NCBI RefSeq assembly: GCF_964272895.1
Contig: NZ_OZ186833.1
Coordinates: forward strand, 60,034 to 124,033
Length of the DNA: 64,000 nt
Source: Streptomyces sp. enrichment culture
GTDB lineage: Bacteria > Actinomycetota > Actinomycetes > Streptomycetales > Streptomycetaceae
Direction: 5' to 3'
Shown here: in pieces, positions 1-64,000 of the stretch
How positions within the stretch are numbered: position 1 is the stretch's first letter
Layout: the number at the start of each line of letters is the position of its first letter
The notes under the pieces: model-generated
The model's database searches: none
What the model was told of the DNA's origin: nothing
The model's input: the letters and a program-made list of their open reading frames with translations, nothing else
Made by a program: the position numbers and the translations under genes

Positions 1-1277
1 ACGGTGGGTGCCGAAGAGCTCCGCCGCCCTGGCCCGCCGGACCTCTCCGACCTCCGACGGCTCGAAGTAGTGGGCGAACGCCGTCGAGCGGCGCTCCGGC
101 GGCACATGCGGGCCGAGGCCGATCGCGGCCTCCGTCATGACCCGGTGGTGGAACCAGGCGGCCAGGCCCCAGTCGACGTTCCGCTTGCCGACCGGCCGCC
201 GCTCGGCCTCGTAGGTGTCCAGCAGGCCGTCGTCGGCGCGTCCGGAGAGCACCGCGGCCAGCTTCCAGGCGAGGTTGTGCACGTCCTGGATGCCGCCGTT
301 GAGACCGAGCCCGGTGGTGGGCGGCTGGCGGTGGGCGGCGTCGCCCACGATGAACACCCGCCCGACCCGGTAACGGTCGGCGAGGACGCCCTCGACGGTC
401 CACCGGGACACCTTGTGCACCGTCAGATCGAGGTCGGGCAGGCCCAGCACCTCACGCATGCGCTCGGCGACCGCCGCGTCGTCGGAGAGGTCCACGTCAC
501 CGAGGACGAAGGTCAGGCCCCACTCCTCGCACTGCCTGCCCCAGGTCGGCCCCATCTCCAGCAGCGCGGAGTTGAGGTCGGGGCGGTAGGGGTTGACGAA
601 CCAGGTCATCAAGGTGCCGTCGTGCCACCACTGCGACAGATCCGCGGAGAAGTACGCGGTGGTGACGTCGGCCATCTTCACCGTGCCCTGCATCCGCACA
701 CCCAGCTCCGGGCCGAGCGTGCGTCCGCCGTCGGCGGCGATGACGTACTGCGCCACGACCCGGTTGACGTCACCGGTGGTGAGGTCGCGGATCTCGGCGA
801 CGACCCGGTCTCCCTCCTCGGCGAAGGAGACCAGCTCGTGGGAGAAGAGCACGCGGCGGGGTTACGTTCCTCCGCCTTCCGGCGCAGGATCGGCTCCAGC
901 CTCAACTGCGGCAGCTTGAACGGCAGCACCGGGCCGTCGGCCGCGTACACCTCGGTCAGCGCGCCACCGCCGAACGCGTCCATCTCGTGGATCACCCGGC
1001 GGTCCAGGGGACCGTCGCCGGTCAGCGAGGTCTGCCAGCGCACCCGGCCGAACCGGTCGGTGGTGGAAGCCCGCTCCACCACGTCGTCGTAGAGGCCGTG
1101 CTGGCGAAAGACCTCCATCGTGCGTTGGTTGATGTAATGCGCTTTGGGCACGATCGACGTGTCCGTATGGCGCTCCACGAGCATGTGTCCCACACCGTGG
1201 TCCGAGAGAAAGATGGAGGCGGACAGGCCGCAGCCACCGCCGCCCACGATCAGAACCGGAACCTCGGTAACCTCCAT
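1..1277 (-). pseudogene. FAD-dependent aromatic monooxygenase (PheA/TfdB, RdmE-like) with a 1-nt frameshift near 858; runs off the window start
   Basis: N-terminal VLIVGGGGCG Rossmann motif in ORF 678-1277. After ...RRKAEERNP a second frame continues RVLFSHELVSF..VIAADGG..FIVGDAAHRQPPTTGLGLNGGIQDVHNLAWKLA without stops to position 1. Confidence 0.85.
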
Positions 1278-1540
1278 ATTCGGCCTTCCCTAAGGTGAGG
1301 GCCCACAGGTAGGGCGCCAGACGATCATGAAGAGCCTGTCGCCGACGGGCGGGCCGCGGAAACGGTTCAACCGACGTGCCGTCCCGGATACGGCAGTCGA
1401 CGCCACCATGGCGGCGGTCGACGCAGGCATGACGACACACCTCGGCCGATGCTGCGGTCCCAGCATCTGGCTCCGTGGTTGAGGCGCACTATCGAGCCGG
1501 TTGGTGCCGGCTTGGCGGCATCGGCGCACGGCCGCTGACC

Positions 1541-1577
1541 TCGAACAACCTCGAACACCCTCGGCTCGTGTCGAACA
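1541..1577 (+). promoter_or_regulatory. phased heptamer direct repeats TCGAACA in a divergent promoter region
   Basis: TCGAACA at 1541, 1551 and 1571, with TCGGCTC at 1561; 10-nt register. Confidence 0.45.
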
Positions 1578-1633
1578 CCGGACCGTCCGCGATCACCCGT
1601 TCGGGGCGGCCTGGCGAGGAAACGGCCCTCACC

Positions 1634-4323: not shown

Positions 4324-5303
4324 GTGCGTATCGCCGTGGCCGGGTCGATTGCGATCGACCAACTGATGGTGTTTCCCGGAAGCTTCGCCGACCAGCTGAT
4401 CGAAGGGCAGCTGGAGCATGTGTCCCTGTCGTTCCTCGCCGACCAGATGGAAGTGCGCAGAGGCGGGGTCGCCGCCAACATCGCCTTCGGACTCGGCCGA
4501 CTGGGCCTGACACCGTACCTGGTGGGCGCGGCAGGGGCCGACTTCGCCGAGTACGGCGCCTGGCTGCGGGCGGCCGGCGTGGACACGGACGCCGTGCGGA
4601 TCAGCGAGACCCTGCACACCGCCCGCTTCGTGTGCACCACGGACCGGGCGCAGAACCAGATCGCCACCTTCTACGCCGGTGCCATGGCCGAGGCCGCGAA
4701 GATCGACCTGGGTGCCGTGGCCGAACGCACCGGCGGCTTCGATCTCGTCCTCGTCGGCGCCGACGCCCCCGAGGCCATGCTGCGCCATACCGAGGCCGCC
4801 CATCGCGCGGGCATCCTGCTCGCCGCCGACCCCTCCCAGCAGCTCGCCCGCCTCGACGGACCGCAGGCCCGGCGCCTGGTCGACCGGGCACACCTGCTGT
4901 TCACCAACGAGTACGAGGCCGCCCTGCTGCGCGAGCGCACCGGCTGGAGCGAGCGGGACATCCTCGGCCGGGTCGGCACCTGGATCGTCACCCGCGGCGC
5001 CGAGGGCGTGTCGCTGTCGCGCTGCGGACAGCCCCGTACCGACATCCCGGCCGTACCGACGGAGCGCATCGCCGACCCGACCGGTGTCGGTGACGCGTTC
5101 CGGGCCGGGTTCCTCGCCGGCCTCGCCTGGGAGTGGTCCCCCGAGCGCGCGGCACGGCTCGGCTGCGCGCTGGCCTCCGTCGTCCTGGAGTCGGTCGGCA
5201 CACAGGAGTACAAGCTCCTCCCCGCCGACCTCCTGGAACGCCTGGAGCGCGCCTACGGCCGCGAGGCCGCCCTGGAGATCGAGCCACGTCTGGCAGGTGT
5301 GTC

Positions 5304-5307
<4 letters not shown>
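4324..5307 (+). CDS. adoK: adenosine kinase (PfkB family)
   Basis: MRIAVAGSIAID start, GGVAANIA, DPTGVGDAFRAG PfkB signature; coupled to metH. Confidence 0.88.
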
Positions 5308-8755
<3,448 letters not shown>

Positions 8756-8759
<4 letters not shown>

Positions 8760-9628
8760 GGGGGACGACGGGACCGACGCTGTCGTTCGAGTTCTTCCCG
8801 CCGAAGACCGCCAAGGGCGAGGAGAGCCTGTGGCGGGCCATTCGGCGGGTCGAACCGCTGGCGCCCGACTTCGTGTCCGTCACCTACGGCGCCGGCGGCT
8901 CCTCACGGCACCGGACCATCGAGGTGACCAAGCGGATCGTGTCCGAGACGACGCTGCGGCCGGTCGCGCACCTGACCGCGGTCGGGCACTCGGTGGCCGA
9001 GCTGCGGCGGATCATCGGGCAGTACGCCGACGCCGGCGTGCGCGATGTGCTCGTGCTGCGCGGGGACCCGCCCGGTGACCCCAAGGGGCCGTGGGAGCGG
9101 CATCCGCACGGGTTCGACTACGCCTACCAGCTCGTCGAACTGGTGCGGTCGCTGGGCGATTTCACCATTGGGGTCGCCGCGTTCCCGGAGAAGCACCCGC
9201 GCTCGCCCGACTGGGACAGCGACATCCGGCACTTCGTCGCCAAGTGCCGGGCGGGCGCGGACTACGCCATCACACAGATGTTCTTCGACGTGGAGGACTA
9301 TCTGCGGCTGCGCGACCGGGTCGTGGCCGCCGGCTGTGACGTGCCGATCATCCCGGAGATCATGCCGGCCACGGACGTACGCCAGATCCGGCGCTTCGCG
9401 GAGCTCTCCGACGCGGCGTTCCCCGAGGACCTCGCCCACCGTCTGGAGGGCGCCCGCGAGCGGCCCGAGGAGGCGCACGCGATCGGCGTCGAGTACGCCA
9501 CCGCCATGGCGGAGCGGCTGCTCGCCGAGGGCGCGCCCGGACTGCACTACATCACCCTCAACAAGTCCACGGCGGCCCTCGACATCCACCGCAACGTGCT
9601 GGACCGAAGGACCGTCCGCACCGGGTGA
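8756..9628 (+). CDS. metF: 5,10-methylenetetrahydrofolate reductase
   Basis: [31 protein letters not shown] motifs; ATG 8756 overlaps the metH stop. Confidence 0.96.
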
Positions 9629-9817: not shown

Positions 9818-10351
9818 TCAGCTGCTGGGGATCCAGTCCCGCTGGATGCGCGGGGTCTCGATGCTCAGCGAGCGCATGTGCTCGATCGGGTTGGTGTACT
9901 CGCGGCTGGAGACGATACGGCCGTCACTGAGGGTGAAGCCGTGGATGAAGTGGTTGCGGTAGTGGCCGTCGGGATAGCCGGGGAAGCGGATCGTGCCCTC
10001 GCCCTCGCACTCGACCCAGATGACCGCCGGGTCGTGCGTCTCGTAGATCTGCACGTTGAACCACAGCCAGTCCGGGAGCACCTTGAGGGACAGCTCACCG
10101 TGGTGCTTGAGGTTCTCGCGGCCCCTGACGACGATGGGACGGCCGATGTCGGTGTAGAAGAGGGCGGCGCTGCCGTCCTCGGTGTACAGGGTGTAGCGGT
10201 TGAGCCGAGCGTCGGGATCGGTGTCCAGGTACCTCTCCACCGCCTGGCGGTTGCGGGCCCGCAGGTCGTGGTGGTCGGTGAACGGGGACGGCGGCACAGG
10301 GCCTCTCGAGGGGTCGGAGGCCGTCGGGGAGGGAGCGGTAGCGGCAGTCAT
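9818..10351 (-). CDS. phzA: PhzA/B-family phenazine biosynthesis protein (second copy)
   Basis: RARNRQAVERYL, PDW.W.NV.I.ET.DP..IWVECEG.G, NHFIHGF, REYTNP; start may be 10351 or 10360. Confidence 0.9.
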   Translation of the reverse strand: MTAATAPSPTASDPSRGPVPPSPFTDHHDLRARNRQAVERYLDTDPDARLNRYTLYTEDGSAALFYTDIGRPIVVRGRENLKHHGELSLKVLPDWLWFNVQIYETHDPAVIWVECEGEGTIRFPGYPDGHYRNHFIHGFTLSDGRIVSSREYTNPIEHMRSLSIETPRIQRDWIPSS

Positions 10352-10364
10352 GGCGATCACGGCC

Positions 10365-11051
10365 TCACGGCTGGAGACGGCTGATGTGCCAGCCGTCGTC
10401 TGTACGGTCGTAGCGCAGCCGCTCGTGCAGCCGGTCCGTGCCGTTGGCCCAGAACTCCACCGAGGTCGGCTCGATCCGGTACGCCACGAACGTCTCGGGG
10501 CACGGCAGCGGCTGCCCGGTGGCGCCCAGCTCCAGCGCCTTGGCGCGCAGTTCCTCGAACTCGTCGAGGTCCCTGAACGGCTTGCTCTGCCGGGAGGCGG
10601 TGGTCATCGCGTGCGTGTAGACGGCCCGCTTGAACCACAGCGCCTCCGCCTCGGCGCGGGACAGCAGACGCACCGGCCCGGCCAGCGTGATCTGCTGGCT
10701 GGTCTCGCGCCAGTACAGGACCCCGGAGGCCCACGGGTTCTCGGCGAGCTCCCGGCCCTTGCGGCTGTCGGCGTGGGTGATGATGTCGATCCCGGCGGCC
10801 GACACGGCGTTGATCGCCACGATGCGCGAGGACGTGCGGCCCTGGGCATCGGCGGTCGCGAGGGCCAGGGCCCGCGGTTCGCGCACCTCGTTCGCCACGG
10901 CGTCCTGCAGCCACTGCACGAGCAGCCCCATCGGCTCGGCGGGCGGGGTGACGAACTCGGGGAAGTCCACCGCGAGGGTGGCCGTCATCGTCTCGGAACG
11001 GGTGCTGCCGGGGCCGGCGTGCGTCACCTTTCCGTTCGTTGCCTCAGACAT
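10365..11051 (-). CDS. phzG: phenazine FMN-dependent oxidase (PNPOx family)
   Basis: REPRALALATAD, SRKGRELAENPWASGVLYWRETSQQI, RLHERLRY; ATG 11051 overlaps the phzF stop. Confidence 0.93.
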   Translation of the reverse strand: MSEATNGKVTHAGPGSTRSETMTATLAVDFPEFVTPPAEPMGLLVQWLQDAVANEVREPRALALATADAQGRTSSRIVAINAVSAAGIDIITHADSRKGRELAENPWASGVLYWRETSQQITLAGPVRLLSRAEAEALWFKRAVYTHAMTTASRQSKPFRDLDEFEELRAKALELGATGQPLPCPETFVAYRIEPTSVEFWANGTDRLHERLRYDRTDDGWHISRLQP

Positions 11052-11880: not shown

Positions 11881-11925
11881 CTGTTCTCCCACTTGTCTTG
11901 GTGCTGCGGCCGATGGCCGCACAGG

Positions 11926-16298: not shown

Positions 16299-16322
16299 CG
16301 ACTCTCGGTAGATCGGACGACG

Positions 16323-49757: not shown

Positions 49758-49792
49758 CGCAACACCGTACCAAGGGCGGACCGGGGTTAACT

Positions 49793-49833: not shown

Positions 49834-49918
49834 GATTTGGGTGCGCCGCCGGGCCTGCCGCGTCGCCGTCCCGCCCGTCGCCCATCCCGCCGTCGCCCTG
49901 CCTGTTGGGAGCGAGTTC

Positions 49919-50743: not shown

Positions 50744-50769
50744 CGCGCGTCACCGCGGCCCCCGGCTGA

Positions 50770-50810
50770 GTCACGGGGTCGCGGGGTCGCGGAGTCGCGG
50801 AGTCGCGGCG
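50770..50810. repeat. 8-nt tandem repeat GTCGCGGR, about 5 copies
   Basis: gtcacggg gtcgcggg gtcgcgga gtcgcgga gtcgcggc. Confidence 0.7.
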
Positions 50811-51041
50811 TGAGAAAACACGGCCAGGAAAATCGCGGTGTGCGTGCCGAGCGGACGATTCCGCCGTCACGTACACCGCCCTTTTCCATGCCGGAAAAAC
50901 CTCCGTGAGCCTTTTTCGTCGGGCCCTGGCGGCCTGGCCCGACAAACCTGATGCCCGGATGCGCGTGGCGCGCATCCGGGCATCGGAGGAACAGCGGGAA
51001 CAGAGGAAACTGCGGTGGCGGGGAAATCCCGCCGCCGCGTT

Positions 51042-52430: not shown

Positions 52431-52691
52431 GTCCAACCCTTTCTCTCTGCACGAAAAATCGGCCCGCAGACGTGTCCGTGATGCGGACCGCGGGGCGGAC
52501 TCGATTTTCATCGTACTGTTCGGCCGTCGCTCCGAGAAAGGAAGTGGGGTGGTTTTCCGGACAGCTTCGGGTGTTTTTCCACCGGACGCCGAATGCGATG
52601 CGTTCGGGAATGTGTGCGCGGCGGAAACGGAGCGCGGACGAAACGGCCGCGCGGGAATCCGGACGGACACCGCCGGAATTCCGCGGCCGCC

Positions 52692-53609: not shown

Positions 53610-53668
53610 GGTGGGACTCCTCCTGGGAGAAGGGTGCGAAGGAACGCCCGCGGCGCGACCGGGGGCCC

Positions 53669-54298
53669 TCATGCCGGCCGGGGCGCGGCGGACACCGCGG
53701 GGGTGCGGGCCCCGTGCGGATAGGGGTGGTGGACGCGGCCCTCCCGCAGCACCCTTCCCCACCAGTCCAGTTCGGCGAGGAGCAGCCGGGCCGCGGCCGT
53801 GCTGCCGACCGGGTCCGCGGGCCGGCCGTCGGCGTCGAAGAGCTGTCCCACGCCGTGGAAGCTGACCCCGTCCCGCACCGGCACCGCGTGCACCTCGCCG
53901 AAGACCTGCCGCAGCTGCTCGACCGCCCGCAGCCCGCCGGAGCGGCCCCCGTAGGAGACGAAGCCGACCGGCTTGGCCTGCCACTCGCTGTCGTGCCAGT
54001 CGACCGCGGTCTTCAACGTGGCCGGAAATGAGCGGTTGTACTCGGGGGTGACCACGACGAACACGTCCGCGCGGTCCAGCCGCGGGGTCAGACCCGCCAG
54101 GACCTCGCGGACCTCCGGCGGCGGCACCGCCACCGGTTCCGCGGGCAGCGGGTACTCGGCCAGGTCGACGACGTCCGTCTCCAGACCGTCGCACCGTCGC
54201 GCCGCCTCGGCGAACCAGCGGGCGACGGCCGTGCCGCTCCGTCCCGGCCTGCCGCTGCCGACCAGGACGGCCAGCCGCAAGGGGTCGTACCACATCAT
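53669..54298 (-). CDS. NADPH-dependent FMN reductase (LanZ4/UrdO/JadY-like)
   Basis: VLVGS.RPGR, VTPEYNRSFPATLK.A.D, VSYGG.SGG.RAVEQLR. Confidence 0.9.
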   Translation of the reverse strand: MMWYDPLRLAVLVGSGRPGRSGTAVARWFAEAARRCDGLETDVVDLAEYPLPAEPVAVPPPEVREVLAGLTPRLDRADVFVVVTPEYNRSFPATLKTAVDWHDSEWQAKPVGFVSYGGRSGGLRAVEQLRQVFGEVHAVPVRDGVSFHGVGQLFDADGRPADPVGSTAAARLLLAELDWWGRVLREGRVHHPYPHGARTPAVSAAPRPA

Positions 54299-54333
54299 CA
54301 GCCTTTCCACGACGGGGCGTACGGGCGGGGCGG

Positions 54334-55152
54334 TCAGGTGAAGTCGGCGACGTGGTCGGCCGCCCACTCGGCGAAGCCGCGGGCGGGCCTGCCGAGGTAG
54401 GGCTCGATCGGCGAGATCTCGTGCGGGCGGTCGACCAGGGCCGCGAACATGCGCAGCCGGGCCTCCACGGCGGCGGGCGGGATGCCCACCTCGGCCATCT
54501 CCTTGCGGGCCTCGTCGTGGCTGATCTCCTCGAACCGCACCGGCTTGCCGATCGCCTCGCCGATGATCCGGGCCCGGTCCGCGTAGGTGATGGACTCCGG
54601 GCCGCTGAACATCGGCTTGACGCCGAGCAGTTCGTCGGTGAGCAGGGCACGGGCCGCGAGGTCGGCGATGTCCCGCTCGTGCACCGGGGCCGAGTGGGCC
54701 CGGGCGAAGGGGCCGCGGGCCACTCCGGAGGTGCGGATCTGCTCCTTCCACTCCAGCGCGGTCACCGCCAGCCCGCCGGCGGGCTGCAGGGCGGTCCACT
54801 CCAGACCGGACTCCTCGATCTGACGTTCCAGGTCGCGGTGGCGTACGGCGATGGAGTTCTTCGGGTCGTCGTCGCGGGCCGAGTAGGAGGACAGGGCGAC
54901 GATGCGCCGCACGCCGTGCTCCCGGGCCCGGCGGATCACCTCGGCCGGGCCCTGCGGGAACGCGGCGAGGACGAAGAAGACCGCCTTGACGTCCTTCATG
55001 GGCAGCTCGTCGGTGCGCGCCACCTCCACGCCCTCGGGCAGCCGGGCCCGGTCCGGGTCGCGGGTCAGCGCGCGCACGCTCACCCCGGCCTTGAGCAGGA
55101 GGTCGACGAGAGGGCGGCCAACGTGTCCGGTGGCGCCGGTGACCAGTATCAC
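54334..55152 (-). CDS. NmrA-like NAD(P)H-binding protein (second copy)
   Basis: ILVTGATGHVG, PVHERDIADLA, SGPESIT. Confidence 0.88.
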   Translation of the reverse strand: MILVTGATGHVGRPLVDLLLKAGVSVRALTRDPDRARLPEGVEVARTDELPMKDVKAVFFVLAAFPQGPAEVIRRAREHGVRRIVALSSYSARDDDPKNSIAVRHRDLERQIEESGLEWTALQPAGGLAVTALEWKEQIRTSGVARGPFARAHSAPVHERDIADLAARALLTDELLGVKPMFSGPESITYADRARIIGEAIGKPVRFEEISHDEARKEMAEVGIPPAAVEARLRMFAALVDRPHEISPIEPYLGRPARGFAEWAADHVADFT

Positions 55153-55228
55153 GGGTGTCTCCCAGGTGAGTTCGTCGGTGTCCGGGGTCGATGCGGCGGC
55201 GGGCGCCGCGGGGATTCGCCGGGTGGCG

Positions 55229-56767
55229 TCAGCCCGTCAGGCCGCGCGTGTAGTCCAGGCCGGCGGGCTCGAACTGCACGACGGCGTGGCTGGCCACCGA
55301 GCGCACATCGCGCCAGAACCGCTGCAGCGGGTGCCGGTCGTCCTGGGCCCGGGTGCCGCCGGCCCGCAGCAGCGCGTCCACCGCCTCCACCAGCAGTTCC
55401 AGGGCGAGCGCCGCGTCACGGCGGCTGCGGCGGACGAGCACGGGGTTGAGCCGTCCGGTGTCGGCGGTCTCGGCGACCCGCAGCAGCAGCAGCTGGGCCG
55501 CGTCGATCAGGCCGGCGGCGCGGGCGTAGCCGATCTGATACGCCTGCCCGGATGCCTCGCGCGGGCCGGTCGCGGGGACCGTGGTGGCGGGGGCCGCGGC
55601 CCGCAGGGCGCCCAGTGCCGCGCCGAGCGCCGGCGCCACGAAGGTCAGGCCGTTGACCGCCAGGGTGGGCAGCGGCGGACCGGACACGCCCACCACCCGG
55701 CCCTTCATCGCGTCCTCGCGCAGGCAGGTGCGGTACTCCGGAACCAGGACGTCGTCCAGCACGAGGGTGTGGCTGCCGGTGCCCCGCATGCCGAGCGAGT
55801 GCCAGGTGTCCCGGTGGCCGAAGTCCGCGCGGGGCACCAGGAAGAACCGCAGCGGTCCGCCGCCCTGTCCGGGCGGGCCGGCGGGGGCGGGACCGGCCAG
55901 CAGGGCCCAGTCGGCGTACTCGACACCGCTGACGAACGTCCACTCGCCGGACAGCCGCCAGCCGCCCTCGACCGGTACGGCCGTGCCGAGCGGCTTGTTG
56001 ACCACGCACACCCGGGCGTCGGGCCCGTCCGCCCAGACCTCGGCCTGCGCCTTCTCGGGCAGACAGGCGACGTACCGGGCGGCGAACGCGAACAGCGAGG
56101 CCAGCCAGGCCGTGGAGGCGCAGTCGGCGCCCAACACCGCGAGGTGGCGCACCAGTTCGGCGTACCCGCGCGGCTCCCCGCCGCGCTCGCGCGGTACGAA
56201 CCAGCGGGCGAACCCGGCCGAGGTCAGGGCCTCGACCACCTCCGGCGTCACACGCCGGCCGGTGTCCGCCGGGCCGGCCTGCGCCGCGGCCAGCACCGCC
56301 GCGTCCCGCACCGGCGCCGGCGGCCAGGGGGCCGGGTCGGCGGCGGCCGGTTCGGGCCGCTCGGCCAGCAGGTCGCGCCCCTGCGGGCTCTGCAGCGCCG
56401 CTTTCGTCTCGAAGGACGTGAGGTGGACGAGGGCGCCGTCGGGGGAGTGCACCGTGGCGGGTCCGGAGCCGGTGTAGGAGTCGCCCTCGCGTACGGCGTC
56501 GACCGTGACGCGGACGTGTCCGGGCATGCCGGTGACGGCCGGGTCGAGGGTCTCGATGAAGGAGTACGCGAAGCCCCGGTCGGTCGGCCGCCAGGTGCCC
56601 CGGCCGCTGCTGAACGGCGTGACCAGGGTGACGGTCCCGTCGGGCAGGAAGGAGATCGTGAACGGGTCCGACTGCCCGTCGTGGTCGGCCGTGCCGGTCC
56701 ACACCCCGACCGGGGCCGAGGGCGAGCCGAGGGCGGAGTCGGCGGAGTCGTGGATGCCTGTCGTCAT
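55229..56767 (-). CDS. acyl-CoA dehydrogenase-fold flavin monooxygenase (LanZ5/HsaA-like) with an extra ~125-aa N-terminal beta-rich domain
   Basis: C.STAWLA, GEW.FVSG..YADW, DTW...GMRGTGSHT, LQRFWRD....SH; N-terminal extension rich in T/V/G. Confidence 0.85.
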   Translation of the reverse strand: MTTGIHDSADSALGSPSAPVGVWTGTADHDGQSDPFTISFLPDGTVTLVTPFSSGRGTWRPTDRGFAYSFIETLDPAVTGMPGHVRVTVDAVREGDSYTGSGPATVHSPDGALVHLTSFETKAALQSPQGRDLLAERPEPAAADPAPWPPAPVRDAAVLAAAQAGPADTGRRVTPEVVEALTSAGFARWFVPRERGGEPRGYAELVRHLAVLGADCASTAWLASLFAFAARYVACLPEKAQAEVWADGPDARVCVVNKPLGTAVPVEGGWRLSGEWTFVSGVEYADWALLAGPAPAGPPGQGGGPLRFFLVPRADFGHRDTWHSLGMRGTGSHTLVLDDVLVPEYRTCLREDAMKGRVVGVSGPPLPTLAVNGLTFVAPALGAALGALRAAAPATTVPATGPREASGQAYQIGYARAAGLIDAAQLLLLRVAETADTGRLNPVLVRRSRRDAALALELLVEAVDALLRAGGTRAQDDRHPLQRFWRDVRSVASHAVVQFEPAGLDYTRGLTG

Positions 56768-56782
56768 GCTGACCATCCCTAG

Positions 56783-56893: not shown

Positions 56894-58423
56894 ATGTCCG
56901 TGGACGACCGGCCCGTGGCCGCCGAGGCGGCACCCGGGCAGCCCGGCGGACGGCAAGGCTTAGTCCTGGCGGTCCTCGCCACGGCACAGGTCATGATCAT
57001 TCTGGACAGCACGATCATGAACATCGCGCTGCCCAGCATCCAGCGCGATCTCGGCGTCAGCAGCGGCGCCCTCGCCTGGATCGTCACCGCGTACGTGCTG
57101 TCCTTCGGCGGCCTGCTGCTGATCGGCGGACGCGCCGGTGACATCTACGGCCGCCTGCGGGTGTTCCGCCTCGGCATCGTCGTCTTCACCCTGGCCTCCC
57201 TCGTCGGCGGCCTCGCACCGAACGAGGGCGTGCTCATCGCCGCCCGCGCCGCCCAGGGACTCGGCGGCGCCCTCGTCTCCCCGGCCGTCGTCGCGCTGAT
57301 CGCGGCGAACTTCCCCGAGGGACCCGCACGCAACCGGGCCATGGGCGTGTACGGCTCGATGAACGGCGTCGGCTCCACCCTCGGCCTGCTGCTCGGCGGC
57401 GTGCTCACCGCCTACCTGGACTGGCGCTGGGTGCTCCTCGTCAACGTGCCCGTCGGCGCCGCCGTGGTCTGGGGCACCCGGCTGCTGCGCGACCCCGGCC
57501 GGCACACGGGCCGCCTCGACGTGCCCGGCGCGGTCACCGGCACCATCGGCCTGACCTCCCTGGTGTACGGACTCACCCGCGGCGGCGAGGAAGGCTGGTC
57601 GGACGCGGTGGCCGTCGCCTCGCTCGGCAGTGCCGCCGTCCTGCTCGCCGTGTTCCTCGCGGTCCAGGCGCGCAGCGGCCACCCGATGATGCCGCTGCGG
57701 CTGCTGCGCGACCGCAACCGCAGCGGCGGCTACGCCACGATGCTGCTCATCGGCGCGGGCATGTTCGCGATGTACTACTTCCTCACCCTGTACATGCAGC
57801 AGATCCTCGGCTACTCCGCGATGCGCACCGGACTGGCGTATCTCCCGCTGAGCCTCGGCATGTTCGTCTCCGGCGGCTTCCTCGCCCCACGCCTGGTGGG
57901 CCTGCTGCCCACCCGGGCCGTGACCGGGCCGGGACTGGCGCTCAGCGCGCTCGGCGTGCTGTGGCTCGGCACCCTGACGCCGGACTCGGCGTACCTCACC
58001 CACCTCGCCCCGGCGATGCTGATGACCTCGGTCGGGCTCGGCCTGTGCTTCATGCCGCTGACGGTCCGCATCGTCAGCGGCGTCCCCCCGCAGGAGACCG
58101 GCATCGCCGCCGGGGTCCTCACCACGGCGAGCCAGGTGGGCGGCGCCGTGGGGCTGGCCTTCCTGCCGGGCATCGCCACGGCCACGGCCGAGGACCGGCT
58201 GGCGGGCGCCCCGGACGCCCTGCTGCGGGCCCTCGCCACCGACGACCAGGGGCTGCTGAGCCGGGCGGCCGACGCCCTCACCCACGGATACGGCACGGCG
58301 TTCCGCGTCGTGGCCGTCCTGTACGCCGTGGCCCTGGTGACCGTCGTGGCCGTGGTCACCGCCAAGGGGCCGCGGGCCGCCCGGCCGGAAGAACAGCCCG
58401 CGCAGCAGCGGGCGCAGGCATAG
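56894..58423 (+). CDS. DHA2 (EmrB/QacA) MFS efflux pump; TTA codon near the N-terminus
   Basis: LDSTIMNIALPSIQ, GGRAGD..GR, ARAAQGLGGA, W.W..LVNVP; about 14 TM. Confidence 0.95.
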   Translation: MSVDDRPVAAEAAPGQPGGRQGLVLAVLATAQVMIILDSTIMNIALPSIQRDLGVSSGALAWIVTAYVLSFGGLLLIGGRAGDIYGRLRVFRLGIVVFTLASLVGGLAPNEGVLIAARAAQGLGGALVSPAVVALIAANFPEGPARNRAMGVYGSMNGVGSTLGLLLGGVLTAYLDWRWVLLVNVPVGAAVVWGTRLLRDPGRHTGRLDVPGAVTGTIGLTSLVYGLTRGGEEGWSDAVAVASLGSAAVLLAVFLAVQARSGHPMMPLRLLRDRNRSGGYATMLLIGAGMFAMYYFLTLYMQQILGYSAMRTGLAYLPLSLGMFVSGGFLAPRLVGLLPTRAVTGPGLALSALGVLWLGTLTPDSAYLTHLAPAMLMTSVGLGLCFMPLTVRIVSGVPPQETGIAAGVLTTASQVGGAVGLAFLPGIATATAEDRLAGAPDALLRALATDDQGLLSRAADALTHGYGTAFRVVAVLYAVALVTVVAVVTAKGPRAARPEEQPAQQRAQA

Positions 58424-58474
58424 CCACCGCGGCGGCACCACCCAGCAACCGTCCCCGGACAAGGAGGCAGCGCA

Positions 58475-59149
58475 GTGATCTCCCGCGTCGACGAAACACC
58501 CCAGCACAAGCCGACGGCGAGCACCCCGATGGTGGTGCCGCGGCCCGACGGCAAGGGTGAGCGCACTCGTCGCCGCATCCTCCTCGCGGCCCGCCGCGTC
58601 TTCGGCGAGTACGGCTACGAGCGGGCGACCATCCGCCTGATCGCCGAGGCCGCCGACGCGCACAAGTCGTCCGTGATGCAGTACTTCGGCACCAAGGAGC
58701 AGCTGTTCAGGGAGGCGGTCCACTTCGAGATCCCGATCGACGAGCTGACCACGCCGGACCCGGTGAGCAGTGCGGAGAACTACCTGCGCACCATGCTGGG
58801 CCGGTGGGCGACCAGCCCGGACAGCCCGATGGCGGTCCTGGTGCGCACCAGCATGACCAGTGAGATGGCGGCCGAGGAGCTGCGCCGACTGGTCACCGAC
58901 CAGTCCACCGAGGCCATCGCCCAGCACATCGACCTGCCCGACGCGCGGGTCCGGGCCGGCCTGTTCTCCGTGATCATGTTCGGCATCGCCAGCGGACGCT
59001 ACCTGCTGCGCATCCCCGACGTCAGCGAGCCGGACCTGGAGGACATCGTCCGGGTGGCCGCGCCGGTGATCCGCACCCTGATCGCCGGCGAGGACAAGCC
59101 GGAGAACTCCTGCACGACGGCCCAGCAGGAGGCGTCCGAGCAGGACTGA
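58475..59149 (+). CDS. TetR-family regulator
   Basis: TRRRIL.AAR..F...GYERATIR.IA..A....S.V..YFGTKEQLF. Confidence 0.93.
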   Translation: MISRVDETPQHKPTASTPMVVPRPDGKGERTRRRILLAARRVFGEYGYERATIRLIAEAADAHKSSVMQYFGTKEQLFREAVHFEIPIDELTTPDPVSSAENYLRTMLGRWATSPDSPMAVLVRTSMTSEMAAEELRRLVTDQSTEAIAQHIDLPDARVRAGLFSVIMFGIASGRYLLRIPDVSEPDLEDIVRVAAPVIRTLIAGEDKPENSCTTAQQEASEQD

Positions 59150-59691: not shown

Positions 59692-60702
59692 TCAGCCCCG
59701 GCCCGCCGTCACCCGGCCGTCCGTCGCGCCGAGCCGTGCCAGTCGGTCCAGCGCCGTCTGCCAGGCGCCCCAGCAGTCCTGGCGTTCGTCGGGGAGCATG
59801 CAGACCACCTCGCTGCGGCCGGAGCGGACGGCCGGGTGCCGGCGGGCCGGCGCGGACAGGGACATGCCCGGTCCCGTCTCGACGAGGAGGTGGTCACCGG
59901 AATCCAGCAGCTTCGACAGAGCCTCCCAGTACAGCACCGGCTCGGCCATCTGACCGGCCCAGAAGGCCGGGTCCACGGCCTCGCGTGCGGTGACCGTCCG
60001 ACCGGTGCGCGCCGAGAGGATCGGGATCCGCGGCGGATGCAGCGGCTCCGCGGCCACCGCCTCCTGGAACGCGAGCGCCGCCTCCCGCAGCGCCGGCGAG
60101 TGCCACGGCTCGGTCGCCCGGACCCGCCGGGCCACCAGACCGGCGGCGCGCAGCGCCTGCTCGGTGCGCGCCAAGGACGCTTCGGGCCCGGCCAGGATCG
60201 TCTGCGTGGGCGCGTTGACCGCGCCGACGGCCACGCCGTGCCGTACGTCCTGCGCATCGAGCCACGGCCGTATCCGCTCCGGCGCGGCGGCGACGGCGAG
60301 CATGCCGCCGGCGGGCGCCGCGGACAGCGAGCCCGAGCGGGCCAGCAGGATGCGGGCCGCGCTCGGCAGGTCGAAGACACCGGCCAGAGCCGCCGCGGCC
60401 AGCTCGCCGATGCTGTGCCCGAGGAGCACCGCCGGGCGCAGCCCGAGCTGCTGCAGGACCCGGCCGACGCCGTAGCCGATGGCGAACAGCAGCGGCTGCG
60501 CCCGCCGCCCGTCGTCCAGCGGCAGCGCCGGCGCGTCACCGAGCCAGTCCTCACGGATCTGCGCGCCCGGCCGGCCCATCAGATCCAGCACCTCGTCCAC
60601 GGCGACACGGAAGAGGGGCTCTCGTTGGTACAGCGGTACCGCCATGCGCGGGTACTGCGCCCCCTGACCGGGGAGCAGCAGCGCGACGGGACGTTCGGCC
60701 AT
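59692..60702 (-). CDS. standalone acyltransferase (DpsD/AknF-like type II PKS accessory AT)
   Basis: LLPGQGAQ, AQPLLFA, GHSIGE, VNAP, EPWHS. Confidence 0.88.
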   Translation of the reverse strand: MAERPVALLLPGQGAQYPRMAVPLYQREPLFRVAVDEVLDLMGRPGAQIREDWLGDAPALPLDDGRRAQPLLFAIGYGVGRVLQQLGLRPAVLLGHSIGELAAAALAGVFDLPSAARILLARSGSLSAAPAGGMLAVAAAPERIRPWLDAQDVRHGVAVGAVNAPTQTILAGPEASLARTEQALRAAGLVARRVRATEPWHSPALREAALAFQEAVAAEPLHPPRIPILSARTGRTVTAREAVDPAFWAGQMAEPVLYWEALSKLLDSGDHLLVETGPGMSLSAPARRHPAVRSGRSEVVCMLPDERQDCWGAWQTALDRLARLGATDGRVTAGRG

Positions 60703-60780
60703 GGGGGTCTCCGTCACAGGTCTGGGAGAAGGGTGAAGGCGCGGGCGCAACAGGGCCGCGGGCGCGGGAACGGACGGCCC

Positions 60781-60978
60781 TCAGTGCCGCCAGCTGCGCG
60801 GTGAGCCGTACCCGGCGCGCCGCTCGGGCCGCTGCCAGCGGACGGCCGGCGGGTGCGCCCGCTCGGGCGGCCCGTCCGCGCCGGCCAGTGCCAGCAGCAG
60901 GGCGAGGACCGCGGCGATCTCCTCCCGCGCGGCGTGTCCCCGCTCGACACGCAGGACGTCTGCGACGGCCGTCGACAT
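60781..60978 (-). CDS. acyl-CoA carboxylase epsilon subunit
   Basis: LRVERGHAAREEIAAVLALL..W.R....GY..P.SW; follows the beta subunit. Confidence 0.88.
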   Translation of the reverse strand: MSTAVADVLRVERGHAAREEIAAVLALLLALAGADGPPERAHPPAVRWQRPERRAGYGSPRSWRH

Positions 60979-61078
60979 CGTGAACTCCTTTCAGGGGCGG
61001 GCCCCTTGGGACCGCGGGGCCCGCGGGACACATACGCGGGCGGCTCGGCGTGCGGGCCGCCGCACGGCGCGGGCGTGC

Positions 61079-62623
61079 TCACTGCGGCGGATTGCCGTGC
61101 TTGCGGTGCGGCAGTTCCGCGTGCTTGGTGCGCAGCATGTGCAGCGACCCGATCAGGATCCGGCGGGTCTCGGACGGGTCGATCACCTCGTCGATCAGCC
61201 CGCGCTCGGCGGCGTAGTACGGGTGCATCAACTCGGTCCGGTACTCCTTGACCCGCCGGGCGCGCACCGCCTCCGGGTCGTCGGCCTCGGCGATCTGCCG
61301 CCGGAAGATGACGTTGGCGGCGCCCTCCGCGCCCATCACGGCGATCTCGTTGGTGGGCCAGGCGTAGGTGAGGTCCGCCCCGATGGACTGGGAGTCCATG
61401 ACGATGTAGGCGCCCCCGTATGCCTTGCGCAGCACCAGGGAGATCCGGGGCGTGGTCGCGTTGCAGTACGCGTACAGGAGTTTGGCGCCGTGCCGGATGA
61501 TGCCGCCGTGCTCCTGGTCGACGCCGGGCAGGAAGCCCGGCACGTCCAGCAGCGTGACGATCGGGATGTTGAAGGCGTCGCACAGCTGCACGAACCGCGC
61601 GGCCTTCTCGGACGCGTGGATGTCCAGCACGCCCGCCAGCACCTGCGGTTGGTTCGCGACGATGCCCACGACCTGGCCGTCCAGCCGGGCCAGCGCGCAG
61701 ATGATGTTGCGCGCCCAGCGGTCGTGGACCTCGAGAAGCTCGCCGTCGTCGACGATCTCCTCGATCACCGCCCGCATGTCGTACGGCCGGTTGCCGTCCT
61801 CCGGCACCAGCTCCAGCAGTGCGTCGGTACGCCGGTCGGGCGAGTCCGACGACACGGTCATCGGGGGCAGTTCGCGGTTGTTGGACGGCAGCAGGGACAG
61901 CAGGTAGCGCACCTCGGCCAGGCAGGTCTCCTCGTCGTCGTGGACGAAGTGGGCGACCCCGGAGGCCGCGGCGTGCACATCGGCGCCGCCCAGCCCGTCG
62001 TGACCGATCTCCTCGCCCGTGACGGCCTTGACGACGTCCGGGCCGGTGATGAACATCTGCGAGGTGCCCCGCACCATGAACACGAAGTCCGTCAGCGCGG
62101 GGCTGTAGGCCGCACCGCCGGCGCACGGACCCAGCATCACACTGATCTGCGGGATCACACCCGAAGCCCTGGTGTTGCGCTGGAAGATCCCGCCATAGCC
62201 GGCGAGCGCCGAGACGCCCTCCTGGATACGCGCACCCGCACCGTCGTTCAGCGACACCAGCGGAGCCCCGGCCGCGATGGCCATGTCCATGATCTTGTGG
62301 ATCTTCGTCGCATGGGCCTCACCCAGCGCACCACCGAAGATCCGGAAGTCATGCGCGTACACGAAGACCGTCCGGCCGTCCACCGTGCCCCAGCCGGTGA
62401 TCACACCGTCGGTGTACGGCCTCTTCGTCTCCAGCCCGAAACCGGTCGCCCGGTGCCGGCGCAGCGACTCCACCTCGTGGAAGGAACCCTTGTCCAGCAG
62501 CAGACCGATCCGTTCGCGGGCGGTCAGCTTGCCCTTGGCGTGCTGCGCCTCAGTGGCCCGCTCGCTCGGCCCGCGCAACACCTGTTCGCGCAGCGCCTGC
62601 AGTTCCGCAACTCGGGAGAACAT
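61079..62623 (-). CDS. pccB: acyl-CoA carboxylase beta (carboxyltransferase) subunit
   Basis: KGKLTARERI, GGARIQEG-type motif, GPCAGGAAY, RKAYGGAY, KHGNPP. Confidence 0.96.
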   Translation of the reverse strand: MFSRVAELQALREQVLRGPSERATEAQHAKGKLTARERIGLLLDKGSFHEVESLRRHRATGFGLETKRPYTDGVITGWGTVDGRTVFVYAHDFRIFGGALGEAHATKIHKIMDMAIAAGAPLVSLNDGAGARIQEGVSALAGYGGIFQRNTRASGVIPQISVMLGPCAGGAAYSPALTDFVFMVRGTSQMFITGPDVVKAVTGEEIGHDGLGGADVHAAASGVAHFVHDDEETCLAEVRYLLSLLPSNNRELPPMTVSSDSPDRRTDALLELVPEDGNRPYDMRAVIEEIVDDGELLEVHDRWARNIICALARLDGQVVGIVANQPQVLAGVLDIHASEKAARFVQLCDAFNIPIVTLLDVPGFLPGVDQEHGGIIRHGAKLLYAYCNATTPRISLVLRKAYGGAYIVMDSQSIGADLTYAWPTNEIAVMGAEGAANVIFRRQIAEADDPEAVRARRVKEYRTELMHPYYAAERGLIDEVIDPSETRRILIGSLHMLRTKHAELPHRKHGNPPQ

Positions 62624-63588
62624 CAGGCGGCTCCCTCGGCCGCCGGCCGCACCAGGGCGTTCACGGTCGTCTTCATCTGCTGCGCGTCCGTGGTGCGCAG
62701 CGTCGTCACGCCGGGCTCGATCCGCGTGCACAGGCCGCTGAGCGCCTTGCCCTGGCCCACCTCCACGAACCGGTCCACACCGGCGGCCGTCATGTGCCGC
62801 ACCGCGTCCGTCCACAGCACCCGCCCGGTGAGCTGGGCCTGCAGGCACTGTCTGGCCTCGGCCCCGCTGGTGACCAGGGTCCCGCCGGTGCCCGAGTACA
62901 GCGGCACCGCCGGGTCGCAGAACTCCACCTCCGCCAGCGCCGCGGCGAACTCCGGGGCCACCCGGCCCATCAGACTGCAGTGCGCCGGGCCGCCGATGCG
63001 CAGCACGACCACCCGGTCGGCGCCCGCCGTGCCCACCAGCTGCACCAGCCGGTCCACCCCGGCCACCTGCCCGGAGACGACCACCTGGGTCGGGTCGTTG
63101 TGGTTCGCGATCTCCACCACACAGGCCGTCTCCTCGGCCGCCTGCGTGCACAGCTCCTCCACCTGAGGCAGTGTCAGGCCCAGTACGGCCGCCATGCGGC
63201 CCGGCACGGACTCGGTCACCGACGCCATCAGCTCGCCACGCACCTGCACCACGCGCAGCGCGTCCCTCCAGTCCAGCACGCCCGCACACACCAGGGCCGC
63301 GAACTCGCCCAGGCTGTGCCCGGCGACCGCGTCCGGCGCGGCCCCATGGGACCGCAGCACATCGAGCGCGGCCACGCTGGTCAGCAGCATGGCCGGCTGG
63401 GTGACGCGCATGTCGGCCAGTGCCTCGGCCGGGCCCTCGAAGCACAGTGTGGTGATCGGCATGCCGAGCAGTTCGTCGGCGGGCGCGTAGTAGGTGTCGA
63501 TCAGATACGGCCACTGCTTGGCGAGGTCGAGCCCCATGCCCACCCGCTGCGAGCCCTGGCCCGGAAAGACGAAAGCGGTCCTGCCCAT
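62623..63588 (-). CDS. fabD: malonyl-CoA:ACP transacylase (cluster copy)
   Basis: FVFPGQGSQ, TQPA, GHSLGE, R in VQVRGELM, PAHCSLM. Confidence 0.9.
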   Translation of the reverse strand: MGRTAFVFPGQGSQRVGMGLDLAKQWPYLIDTYYAPADELLGMPITTLCFEGPAEALADMRVTQPAMLLTSVAALDVLRSHGAAPDAVAGHSLGEFAALVCAGVLDWRDALRVVQVRGELMASVTESVPGRMAAVLGLTLPQVEELCTQAAEETACVVEIANHNDPTQVVVSGQVAGVDRLVQLVGTAGADRVVVLRIGGPAHCSLMGRVAPEFAAALAEVEFCDPAVPLYSGTGGTLVTSGAEARQCLQAQLTGRVLWTDAVRHMTAAGVDRFVEVGQGKALSGLCTRIEPGVTTLRTTDAQQMKTTVNALVRPAAEGAA

Positions 63589-63635
63589 GCTGGTTCTCCC
63601 TGGTGAACGTGTCGGTGGAGCGTGGGCCGGCCAGG

Positions 63636-64000
63636 TCACAGAAGCGTGCCGCCGGTGGCGTCGACGAAGGCACCCGTGATCCAGCGGGAGGCGTCGGAGG
63701 CGAGGAAGGCGACGACGTCCGCGATGTCCGACGGTTCGCCCACGCGGTTGAAGGCGGACAGCTGGGCCATGAACTGCACGGCCTGCGGATCGTCGAAGAT
63801 CTCGCCGCCGTTGTTCGTCACCCCGGGGGCCACGCTGTTGACGGTGATGCCGCGCCCGGCCAGGTGCTTGGCGTAGTGCCGGGCCATGGTCTCCACGGCA
63901 CCCTTGGTCATCGCGTACGCGATCTCCTCGGGGTTGGCGAACCGGGTGAGCCCCGAGGTGATGTTGATGATCCGGCCGCCGTCGCGCAGGGTGCGCAGCG
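63636..64000 (-). CDS. SDR ketoreductase, LanV/UrdMred-like (5' part outside the window)
   Basis: GRIINITSGLTR.ANP..IAYAMTKGA, ITVNSVAPG.T.NG, FLASDASRWITGAFVDATGGTLL. Confidence 0.85.
   Translation of the reverse strand, partial: LRTLRDGGRIINITSGLTRFANPEEIAYAMTKGAVETMARHYAKHLAGRGITVNSVAPGVTNNGGEIFDDPQAVQFMAQLSAFNRVGEPSDIADVVAFLASDASRWITGAFVDATGGTLL

Follow-up and report, generated by a model that had tools for sequence, protein, structure and literature searches.

Clusters that combine phenazine and THN-meroterpenoid genes have been described in several Streptomyces strains (PMC12814520, PMC3326630, PMC11969235, PMC11776366). Both fnq/epz (Streptomyces cinnamonensis DSM 1042) and mfq (Streptomyces sp. 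S4.7 / S. niveus SCSIO 3406) place a phz core beside a type III PKS THN cassette (PMC12814520, PMC3326630). Each also contains a LysR-cydAB block, genes of the SAM cycle and regulators of the SARP and OvmZ types, and draws on a common isoprenoid supply. Comparable genes are found in the nph (naphterpin)/lav (lavanducyanin core) system of Streptomyces sp. CL190 and in the fur (furaquinocin) cluster of Streptomyces sp. KO-3988, for which the route through nitrite, diazotisation and reductive deamination, including the biochemistry of Fur16 and Fur17, has been published (PMC11969235). The angucycline clusters pga/cab (gaudimycin), urd and lan/jad follow the order oxygenase E, cyclase F, KS-alpha, CLF, ACP, KR and ARO/CYC, and the auricin plasmid pSA3239 of S. 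lavendulae CCM 3239 is a linear replicon carrying an angucycline-type cluster under butyrolactone/SARP/ARR regulation (PMC8910723).

Here, we analysed a stretch of 64,000 nucleotides (hereafter the window), the central 64 kb of a linear plasmid of 140,871 bp. The assembly consists of only two contigs, a 7.5-Mb chromosome and the plasmid contig C2, whose coordinates are used for flanks outside the window. The two ends of C2 are inverted copies of each other (94% over 580 bp) and are similar to the telomere of the chromosome. The plasmid carries ParA-like and D5_N primase genes and, in its left part, an AfsA-type signalling system and several SARPs; its cargo is mostly secondary metabolism. Genes were called and annotated with a GC3 frame plot, Pfam, NCBIfam with equivalog or family cut-offs and PDB sequence matches, and repeats with TRF. 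The components named in an initial annotation of the window, a phz core, a fur-like cassette with CreD/CreE and an angucycline tail, were all found where expected by frame plot and Pfam. That annotation had read them as one integrated three-pathway supercluster. The likelier reading is that the window holds two abutting units, a phenazine and THN-meroterpenoid cluster (Unit A) beside a separate angucyclinone cluster (Unit B). The linear-plasmid replicon, a mevalonate operon and an ABBA prenyltransferase left of the window, and the assignment of a supposed reductase gene to a fusion protein are new relative to the earlier annotation.

Phenazine and THN-meroterpenoid genes of Unit A

Unit A extends from the left flank to about window position 43.2 kb and belongs to the type already described as fnq/epz, mfq and nph/lav. 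At the left window edge, and running past it, lies a gene for an FAD-dependent aromatic monooxygenase (1..1247, minus strand). Its Pfam FAD_binding_3 matches fall in two frames, and it is broken by one frameshift near 858, where a tblastn alignment with the 590-aa NBC_00663 orthologue changes frame at residue 140. Two tailoring genes conserved with the phz/THN unit follow on the plus strand, encoding a SnoaL/NTF2-like protein (1674-2180) and a multicopper oxidase (2401-3933) that are 84% and 75% identical to their NBC_00663 plasmid orthologues, and then a SAM-regeneration operon, adoK-metH-metF (4324..9628, plus strand), recognized by its PfkB, five MetH and MTHFR domains. The phenazine core operon (9818..17507, minus strand) comprises aroC, phzA/B, phzC (a class II DAHP synthase), phzD, phzE, phzF, phzG and a second phzA/B. 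Both PhzA/B copies match PF03284 (300 and 206 bits, cut-off 24), PhzG passes the NCBIfam equivalog NF038138 (309 > 270 bits) and PhzF the family TIGR00654 (196 > 76 bits); PhzE, with fused chorismate-binding and GATase domains, lies in this same operon as the PhzD isochorismatase, PhzF isomerase and PhzG oxidase (Pfam). The operon is 84% identical at the nucleotide level to those of the NBC_00019 and NBC_00663 plasmids. In contrast to fnq/epz and mfq, the window showed neither a phenazine prenyltransferase nor a gene of the PhzM/PhzS type.

The next block, cydB-cydA (minus strand) with a divergent LysR regulator gene (plus strand; 17906..21399), also occurs, as ppzY and ppzZ1/Z2, in S. anulatus and S. 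cinnamonensis, where it is part of the endophenazine clusters (PMC3326630). It is followed on the minus strand by genes for a Sigma-like protein, a DUF3099 protein and an extra cytochrome b (21504..24601), the last 59% identical to the chromosomal qcrB product of which it is a paralogue; the same trio lies on the NBC_00663 plasmid. Further right are an FAD-dependent oxidoreductase gene (25087-26613, minus strand), a GC-rich repeat tract (26961-27294, TRF) and a polyprenyl diphosphate synthase gene (27413-28507, minus strand), both genes assigned with Pfam and NCBIfam. A short OvmZ-like gene (28924-29553, plus strand) has no Pfam match and is 31% identical to a second copy at 48053-49129; the family has been described (PMC8910723, PMC3326630). 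The small OvmW-like gene that ends at 29732 on the same strand is a call of the initial annotation alone.

The nitrite genes and the THN cassette occupy the right part of Unit A, all on the minus strand. A CreD/Fur16-like nitrosuccinate lyase (29850-31325) reaches 709 bits with the NCBIfam equivalog NF052556 (cut-off 650), and a CreE/Fur17-like flavoprotein (31276 to about 33350, the nitrite-pair block ending at 33480) matches PDB 8cp2 with E 2e-201. The THN cassette, including an HTH-less TetR_C protein, spans 33506..42864 (Pfam). Its operon (33982-42864) reads rppA, cupin, aminotransferase, methyltransferase, WrbA, AMP-ligase, metK and methyltransferase, the enzymes corresponding to Fur1, Fur2/MomA, Fur3, Fur4, a Fur5-type diazotase (the AMP-ligase) and Fur6 (the last methyltransferase). 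RppA matches 1U0M (E 3e-171), with the Cupin_2 and DegT genes next to it in the same operon, and the last methyltransferase matches Fur6 (8HAR, E 1e-171). The AMP-ligase has a weak NCBIfam match to the AvaA6 diazotase, as has been reported for Fur5 itself (PMC11969235). Gene order thus matches Fur1-6, with Fur16/17, and the cassette differs from fur of KO-3988 in the insertion of WrbA and metK and in its NphB-like rather than Fur7 prenyltransferase. In terms of nph, the CreD/E pair equates to NphK/L and the Fur5 homologue to NphH. An assignment of three NAD(P)-binding proteins as AvaA7 diazo reductases was discarded; their weak scores (about 28-36 bits, cut-off 400) were taken as generic Rossmann-fold similarity.

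The prenyl supply lies mainly outside the window. A mevalonate operon that, like that of CL190, includes an NphT7-like gene is located at C2 36754-44614, and an ABBA aromatic prenyltransferase (PF11468) about 91% identical to NphB (1ZB6) at C2 47994-48917. Within the window, the prenyl diphosphate supply that had been proposed amounts to a single polyprenyl synthase. A second ABBA prenyltransferase, elsewhere on the chromosome, recalls the scattered lavP of CL190, a different strain.

Judging from characterised orthologues, the phz operon would convert chorismate into the phenazine core, aided by the extra aroC and DAHP synthase copies. RppA would produce THN, and oxidation and amination would yield 8-amino-flaviolin. 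Nitrite from the CreD/CreE-type enzymes would allow the predicted Fur5-type AMP-dependent diazotase, present in the same cassette, to diazotise the amine for its loss as N2. The two methyltransferases would act next, supplied by metK-adoK-metH-metF, and the NphB-like prenyltransferase would attach a prenyl chain derived from the plasmid mevalonate operon.

Genes of the CreD/CreE type have a further association, with the N-N bond chemistry of diazofluorenes that derive from angucyclines. The pair might accordingly serve the angucycline branch, and with it a diazo compound resembling kinamycin or lomaiviticin, instead of THN deamination, and the angucycline oxygenase of Unit B does also resemble FlsO1. 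However, the pair directly adjoins the THN operon on the same strand and keeps its place beside the THN genes in NBC_00663, a plasmid for which the matches listed include no close relative of the Unit B arm. Moreover, Unit B showed no aminotransferase gene, no gene for hydrazine formation and none for ring contraction of the AlpJ/AlpK type, and Fur16/17, Fnq20/21 and NphK/L play exactly the THN-deamination role (PMC11969235). Given the linkage to the THN operon in relatives and the lack of ring-contraction and hydrazine genes in Unit B, we rejected this diazofluorene assignment as extremely improbable.

A shared upstream element and the boundary between the units

A bipartite element, TGTTTTTGGGCAG-N14-AATCGTGACAC, occurs three times on the plasmid and not once on the 7.5-Mb chromosome. 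The copies sit upstream of three operons, mevalonate, aroC-phz (17651..17688) and rppA (43168..43205), and the element is conserved in relatives, including NBC_00663; it is absent from the angucycline arm and from that arm's relatives. This common upstream sequence suggests common control of the mevalonate, aroC-phz and rppA operons.

Gene content follows the same division. Orthologues on the NBC_00663 plasmid exist for 38 of 55 genes called in the interval C2 36-106 kb; most of them are 66-94% identical, and these matches end at rppA: the phz/THN/mevalonate set is conserved on other plasmids that far and no further. The same phz and THN co-cluster is present on the NBC_00019, NBC_00028 and S. 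camelliae plasmids, and the THN cassette is collinear with NBC_00663 and with the relatives G401 and G402, in both of which adoK comes after the THN operon. Signs of co-regulation and co-inheritance, in the form of a common element and a conserved gene set, were thus found for phz, THN and mevalonate and not for the angucycline arm. From these sequence comparisons, the phenazine and THN-meroterpenoid genes form one conserved and probably co-regulated unit.

Homology with NBC_00663, G401 and G402 stops at about 43.0-43.2 kb. The phz/THN unit has its boundary just past the rppA-upstream element, and the two functional units abut at about window 43.2-43.6 kb. The first genes beyond the boundary encode a NAD(P)H-binding protein (plus strand) and AccA (biotin carboxylase and BCCP, minus strand; 43647..46062, Pfam); no counterpart of either was found beside rppA in relatives. 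Since accA is a multi-copy gene, we considered whether the three-part contiguity reflects a false link between a chromosome arm and the plasmid. The assemblies of relatives do break inside accA and pccB, and AccA is 88% identical to its chromosomal copy. Against such an artefact, which we regard as very unlikely, the genome is in just two contigs with telomere-like sequence at both C2 ends, the two accA copies, at 88% identity, are rather dissimilar for a collapse in an assembly like this, and the accA flanks are unique on both sides.

Angucycline genes of Unit B

Unit B begins at about window 43.6 kb, stops 4 kb before the right telomere and is, in our judgement, probably a self-contained angucyclinone cluster. 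Beyond the junction genes lie an atypical OmpR-type response regulator (plus strand), whose receiver is without the N-terminal acidic pair, and a convergent gene for a long Aur1O/OvmZ-family protein (minus strand, 48053-49129; together 47076..49129, Pfam), an ARR-Aur1O partnership that has been described (PMC8910723). They are followed by genes for a MarR regulator, an NmrA-like reductase and a BBE-type flavoprotein (49296..52436, Pfam); the last is related to the mitomycin radical oxidase (McrA-like; PDB 9r43, E 5e-122), and is present in G402 and absent in G401. A minus-strand block (52692..56776) encodes an alpha/beta hydrolase, an NADPH-dependent FMN reductase, an NmrA-like protein and an HsaA/XiaF-type two-component flavin monooxygenase (Pfam; PDB matches 3afe, 2rfq and 5lvu), and an MFS exporter and a TetR regulator are encoded on the plus strand (56894..59149, Pfam).

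The precursor genes at 59692..63588 (minus strand, Pfam) encode a divergent acyltransferase, an ACC epsilon subunit, a carboxyltransferase (pccB) and a FabD-type malonyl-CoA:ACP transacylase. Against the NCBIfam fabD cut-off of 261 bits, the acyltransferase at 62623-63588 scores 289 and that at 59692-60717 scores 110. The fabD of the initial annotation therefore holds for the former and not for the latter. Its reading as a housekeeping duplicate was dropped, since just one of the acyltransferases belongs to the FabD class and neither exceeds about 32% identity to the chromosomal loci matched.

The window ends within a minus-strand gene (63636..64000) that continues past it. What had been called a stand-alone LanV-like SDR is indeed an SDR domain; it belongs, however, to an 800-aa UrdM/PgaM-type oxygenase-reductase, of which it is the C-terminal part, and not to a separate gene. 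The full product contains FAD_binding_3, Rng_hyd_C and adh_short domains; residues 12-503 match CabE/PgaE, and residues 546-800 match 4osp, 6ypz and 4kwh and resemble UrdM-, PgaM- and LanV-type reductases. An internal ATG is preceded by an AGGAGG site, an internal start for the reductase.

A type II PKS had been anticipated to the right of the window, and KS-alpha, CLF and ACP are indeed encoded at C2 132023-134848, 8-11 kb beyond. The right-flank core is in canonical angucycline order: KS-alpha, CLF, ACP, KR and didomain ARO/CYC span C2 130178-134848, a JadI/LanF/UrdF-type cyclase (PF04673, E 6e-40) lies directly upstream of KS-alpha at C2 134818-135156, and the core includes the PgaE/CabE-like oxygenase (CabE match, E 3e-193). 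Unit B shares with pga/cab, urd and lan/jad this gene order and oxygenase, the fusion with its internal reductase start, jadJ/jadN-like carboxylase genes and the ARR and Aur1O-type regulator pair. Unlike those clusters, it has no glycosyltransferase or deoxysugar genes, and it has in addition a P450 with ferredoxin and reductase, the HsaA-type oxygenase, the McrA-like flavoprotein and the second, non-FabD acyltransferase. By analogy with characterised orthologues, a pga/cab/urd-type core with its own malonyl-CoA supply, regulators and exporter, free of sugar genes, would make an angucyclinone. Among the plasmid matches listed, pSA3239 shows about 75% nucleotide identity over the PKS core; its partner clusters and gene complement differ. 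KS-alpha is at most 78% identical to that of any of the 14 genomes compared.

Linkage of the arms and meaning of the replicon

All three arms occur in one genome in the two closest relatives, NPDC048521 and NPDC048514, and on the S. camelliae plasmid, and some selective or functional link is therefore possible. Adjacency is another matter. Among 401 sampled species, phzA/B and rppA are co-located in five, and no close KS-alpha lies beside the co-located genes in those genomes; nor did an adjacent copy of the angucycline arm with phz/THN come to light in that sample. No close relative of the arm was found on the NBC_00663 plasmid among the plasmid matches listed. Unit B is collinear with contigs of NPDC048521 and NPDC048514 (87-91% nucleotide identity, from C2 136 kb into accA), and the G401 and G402 angucycline contigs both reach accA, breaking about 100 bp inside it. 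In NPDC048514, rppA (position 338 kb) lies on a contig of 668 kb and phz (315 kb) on one of 442 kb, and the angucycline module is clearly set apart from both. In NPDC048521, angucycline and THN genes lie on different contigs, the angucycline contig ending inside accA and the THN contig beginning inside a pccB copy, so the two arms may or may not be linked there. A join was suggested by the short distances, 15 kb and 9 kb, between these genes and their contig ends; it is made less likely by NPDC048514, in which the region upstream of that pccB copy is unrelated to the angucycline arm. Nucleotide identity of rpoB is a uniform 94-95% to all four genomes compared.

The duplicated housekeeping genes bear on the same point. 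They are, as had been noted, genuine duplicates, with amino acid identities to the chromosomal copies of 98.7% (aroC), 92% (metH), 90% (metK), 88% (accA), 87.5% (pccB), 64% (metF) and 60% (adoK). They do not form the precursor supply common to three pathways that had been proposed; rather, they sort by arm: SAM genes go with THN, phz is accompanied by aroC and phzC, and the angucycline module has accA with it and pccB, epsilon and FabD inside it. RppA also consumes malonyl-CoA, so the accA and pccB genes could serve both units.

This last point, with accA exactly at the junction, would fit an integrated supercluster of three co-regulated, redox-active branches with pooled precursors and cross-branch hybrids or synergy, as would the contiguity of the arms on a single small replicon, their co-occurrence in relatives, and the AfsA-type system and SARPs, which could act plasmid-wide. 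Yet the conserved cis-element is missing from the angucycline arm and its relatives, the regulator set of each unit is typical of its own class, module boundaries are sharp, the arms are unlinked in NPDC048514, and neither the junction nor Unit B shows an evident coupling enzyme. We consider such integration unlikely. As its sequence indicates, the angucycline arm, with its own regulators and apart from THN/phz in NPDC048514, behaves as an independent module, and the step from adjacency to an integrated supercluster with cross-branch hybrids is not supported. Quite unlikely, too, is that the plasmid acts as a single mobile arsenal of redox-active compounds, with all three product classes (phenazine, naphthoquinone, angucyclinone) induced jointly by its butyrolactone/SARP/ARR circuitry and the host protected by the extra cytochrome bd and cytochrome b and by the McrA-like oxidase; in that case, cross-branch products such as prenylated or phenazine-coupled angucyclinones would form through a promiscuous NphB-type prenyltransferase.

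In conclusion, the two-unit plasmid is not a new kind of system: its co-cluster type is already known, as the initial annotation had recognized (PMC12814520, PMC3326630), and its angucycline cluster is ordinary-looking. It differs from fnq/epz and mfq in its linear plasmid, its NphB-type prenyltransferase and the abutting angucycline cluster, and a neighbouring position on a linear plasmid of Streptomyces argues weakly for functional integration. The replicon is a practical genome-mining target, with a predicted nph-type meroterpenoid, a phenazine and a sugar-free angucyclinone with unusual extra oxygenases on 141 kb that could be cured, transferred or cloned piecewise. The bipartite element, for its part, offers a concrete handle on the co-regulation of known meroterpenoid/phenazine superclusters, a question left open by the mfq study.

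Replicon and gene content

The genome comprises two contigs, and the window (G+C ~70%) corresponds to positions 60034-124033 of the smaller one, C2 (140,871 bp). The two ends of C2 form an inverted match over 580 bp at 94% and look similar to the right end of the chromosomal contig, C1 (7.54 Mb); from its sequence, C2 is read as a linear plasmid. Left of the window, C2 14343-36619 encodes a plasmid backbone and regulatory island (ParA-like protein, D5_N primase), with an AfsA-type signalling set (AfsA and an SDR), three SARPs, TetR-type receptors, a third pccB copy, a thioesterase and a 1167-aa condensation-domain protein.

Genes were called by third-position GC and assigned with Pfam. An FAD monooxygenase gene (window 1-1247), adjoined by MFS and SnoaL genes, is cut by the left window edge. 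When compared with the 590-aa orthologue encoded by the NBC_00663 plasmid, it is split by one frameshift near 858, which would mean that the gene is a pseudogene or that a base was miscalled within a GC-rich run. The left part of the window continues with a SnoaL-like protein, a multicopper oxidase and adoK-metH-metF, followed by the minus-strand operon aroC-phzA/B-C-D-E-F-G-A/B, cydBA with a divergent LysR, a sigma-like gene, a DUF3099 gene and an extra cytochrome b. Genes for an FAD oxidoreductase, a polyprenyl synthase and an OvmZ-like protein then precede the CreD-like and CreE-like genes and an operon encoding RppA, a cupin, an aminotransferase, a methyltransferase, WrbA, an AMP-ligase, MetK and a second methyltransferase. 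Right of this operon lie an NAD(P)-binding protein, accA, an OmpR-type regulator, a protein without Pfam family, MarR and NmrA; a BBE-type flavoprotein, a hydrolase, an FMN reductase, an NmrA-like protein and an acyl-CoA-dehydrogenase-fold oxygenase; and MFS, TetR, acyltransferase, ACC-epsilon, carboxyltransferase and acyltransferase genes, with the C-terminal part of an SDR at the right edge. Pfam, NCBIfam and structure matches thus bore out the components named in the initial annotation, a phz core, a THN (tetrahydroxynaphthalene) operon with CreDE and an angucycline tail. Of the two acyltransferases, just one belongs to the FabD class. GC-rich tandem arrays, mostly intergenic, were observed at window 59171-59641 (54-nt period, ~8 copies), 47814-48003 (26 nt, 7 copies), 26961-27294 (180/39 nt), 31347-31453 (27 nt, 4 copies; inside the CreD/CreE overlap region) and 49211-49305 (28 nt).

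The supply genes described as duplicated are indeed second copies of chromosomal genes. In tblastn searches against the chromosome, amino-acid identity was 98.7% for aroC, 92% for metH, 90% for metK, 88% for accA and 87.5% for pccB, and lower for metF (64%), adoK (60%) and qcrB (59%). Plasmid aroC (window 16323-17507) and its chromosomal counterpart share 98.5% nucleotide identity over the coding sequence only, with flanks lacking homology, suggesting that gene conversion between the two replicons took place recently.

The phenazine-THN unit and its shared element

The phenazine-THN unit extends from the left flank to ~43.2 kb of the window. PhzG and PhzF passed NCBIfam cut-offs, and the CreD-like protein scored above the "nitrosuccinate lyase" equivalog cut-off. 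RppA matched the Streptomyces coelicolor THN synthase structure 1U0M (E 3e-171), the distal methyltransferase of its operon matched Fur6 (8HAR, E 1e-171), and the CreE-like protein matched 8cp2 (E 2e-201). The flank left of the window provides an NphT7-like gene and a mevalonate operon, together with a SARP (C2 45097-46239), a sigma factor and an ABBA prenyltransferase that shares ~91% identity with NphB from Streptomyces sp. CL190.

By analogy with characterised orthologues and the published route (PMC11969235), THN would be converted to 8-amino-flaviolin, the amine of which would be diazotised by CreD/E-derived nitrite and then lost reductively. Two methylations would follow, with NphB-type prenylation as the last scaffold step, while the phz operon would build the phenazine core in parallel. 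In CL190, later phenazine steps are encoded away from the core cluster (PMC11776366), and they may likewise be encoded elsewhere in this genome. The chromosome encodes a second ABBA prenyltransferase (C1 2838612-2839469) that shares 41% identity with the NphB-like enzyme and is a candidate for prenylating the phenazine, by analogy with lavP, which lies scattered in CL190.

An ebo operon (inositol-3-phosphate synthase, TIM-barrel proteins, EboA, TatD, EboE, nucleotide pyrophosphatase) and a ScyD/E-like gene (C2 49604-57778) adjoin the unit, and the NBC_00663 plasmid has the same neighbours; a role in the export of prenylated products is conceivable. Also kept on that plasmid, as a 153-aa gene following metK, is a 154-aa protein (window 33506-33970) consisting of a TetR C-terminal domain without HTH.

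The regulators of the unit, namely the SARP, the LysR with cydAB and a short OvmZ-type protein, are known from ppz/epz/mfq clusters (PMC3326630, PMC12814520). In addition, a bipartite element, TTTTnGGGCAG-N14-AAATnGTGACAC, occurs at three plasmid sites, each upstream of an operon of this unit: aroC-phz (window 17651-17688), rppA (window 43168-43205) and, left of the window, the mevalonate operon (C2 44725-44760). Within this genome it is plasmid-only, with no chromosomal copy, and NBC_00663 and NPDC048521 conserve it at equivalent positions. The phz/THN/mevalonate unit is marked out by this shared element, which is probably a common operator or promoter.

The angucycline arm

The angucycline arm runs from ~43.6 kb rightward past the window edge to C2 136.7 kb (~33 kb in all); beyond the edge, genes for a ferredoxin reductase, an FAD monooxygenase, a ferredoxin, a P450, ARO/CYC, KR, ACP, CLF and KS-alpha are followed by a JadI/UrdF-type cyclase and a PgaE/CabE-like oxygenase (E 3e-193 to CabE). 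The KS, CLF and ACP expected right of the window are therefore present, ruling out their absence, which had been named beforehand as refutation. The SDR at the window end, initially annotated as LanV-like, is the C-terminal domain of an 800-aa UrdM/PgaM-type oxygenase-reductase (C2 123669-126071, window 63636 onward). Residues 12-503 of this fusion match CabE/PgaE, and residues 546-800 match UrdM-, PgaM- and LanV-type reductases. In PgaM, the reductase domain is translated separately; an internal ATG (Met549) preceded by AGGAGG is consistent with the same behavior here.

The pga/cab-type core would produce an angucyclinone aglycone, on which the P450 and the two-component oxygenase would carry out further oxidations. 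No glycosyltransferase or sugar genes were found among the genes called in the arm. Among proteins of solved structure, the BBE-type flavoprotein (window 51042-52436) is closest to mitomycin radical oxidase (9r43, E 5e-122), which suggests hydroquinone re-oxidation, as self-protection or tailoring. Its gene is found in NPDC048514 and is missing from the NPDC048521 locus, which is collinear in other respects. At window 47076-49129, an atypical response regulator (ARR) gene (47076-47861) is convergent with that of a long Aur1O-family protein, a pairing reported for angucycline clusters (PMC8910723); it fits the ARR plus long-Aur1O subclass, not an OvmZ-OvmW fusion. The window's two OvmZ-family proteins share 31% identity.

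Arrangement in related Streptomyces

The closest relatives of the angucycline arm are contigs of NPDC048521 (91% nucleotide identity) and NPDC048514 (87%); their collinearity starts at C2 136 kb and extends leftward into accA, inside which each contig breaks. Both genomes also have phz and the THN cassette (RppA 92% identical), with adoK after the THN operon, indicating that the SAM genes belong to the THN arm. In NPDC048514, the THN cassette (at 338 of 668 kb) and phz (at 315 of 442 kb) lie mid-contig, away from the angucycline arm, and a pccB-SARP block, not that arm, is found upstream of rppA.

The phz operon adjoins the THN cassette on plasmids of NBC_00663, NBC_00019 and NBC_00028, and on that of S. 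camelliae ~11 kb separates them. Within the 50 kb of the NBC_00663 plasmid that were read, orthologues were found for 38 of the 55 genes called in C2 36-106 kb (most 66-94% identical), in rearranged order and with matches ending at rppA. Among 401 sampled Streptomyces species, 63 have PhzA/B, in five of them no more than ~35 kb from a THN synthase; a close KS-alpha nearby is lacking in all five.

The integrated three-part supercluster initially proposed is not supported: the conserved phz/THN set stops at rppA, the bipartite element is not present in the angucycline arm or in that arm's relatives, and the parts are separate in NPDC048514. We found no published description of the three-part arrangement, and the data searched yielded no other contiguous case. 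The two-part phz and THN cluster is already termed a "supercluster" in the literature, and angucycline clusters on linear plasmids are already known. Taken together, the evidence favours a juxtaposition of two modules rather than a new integrated system.
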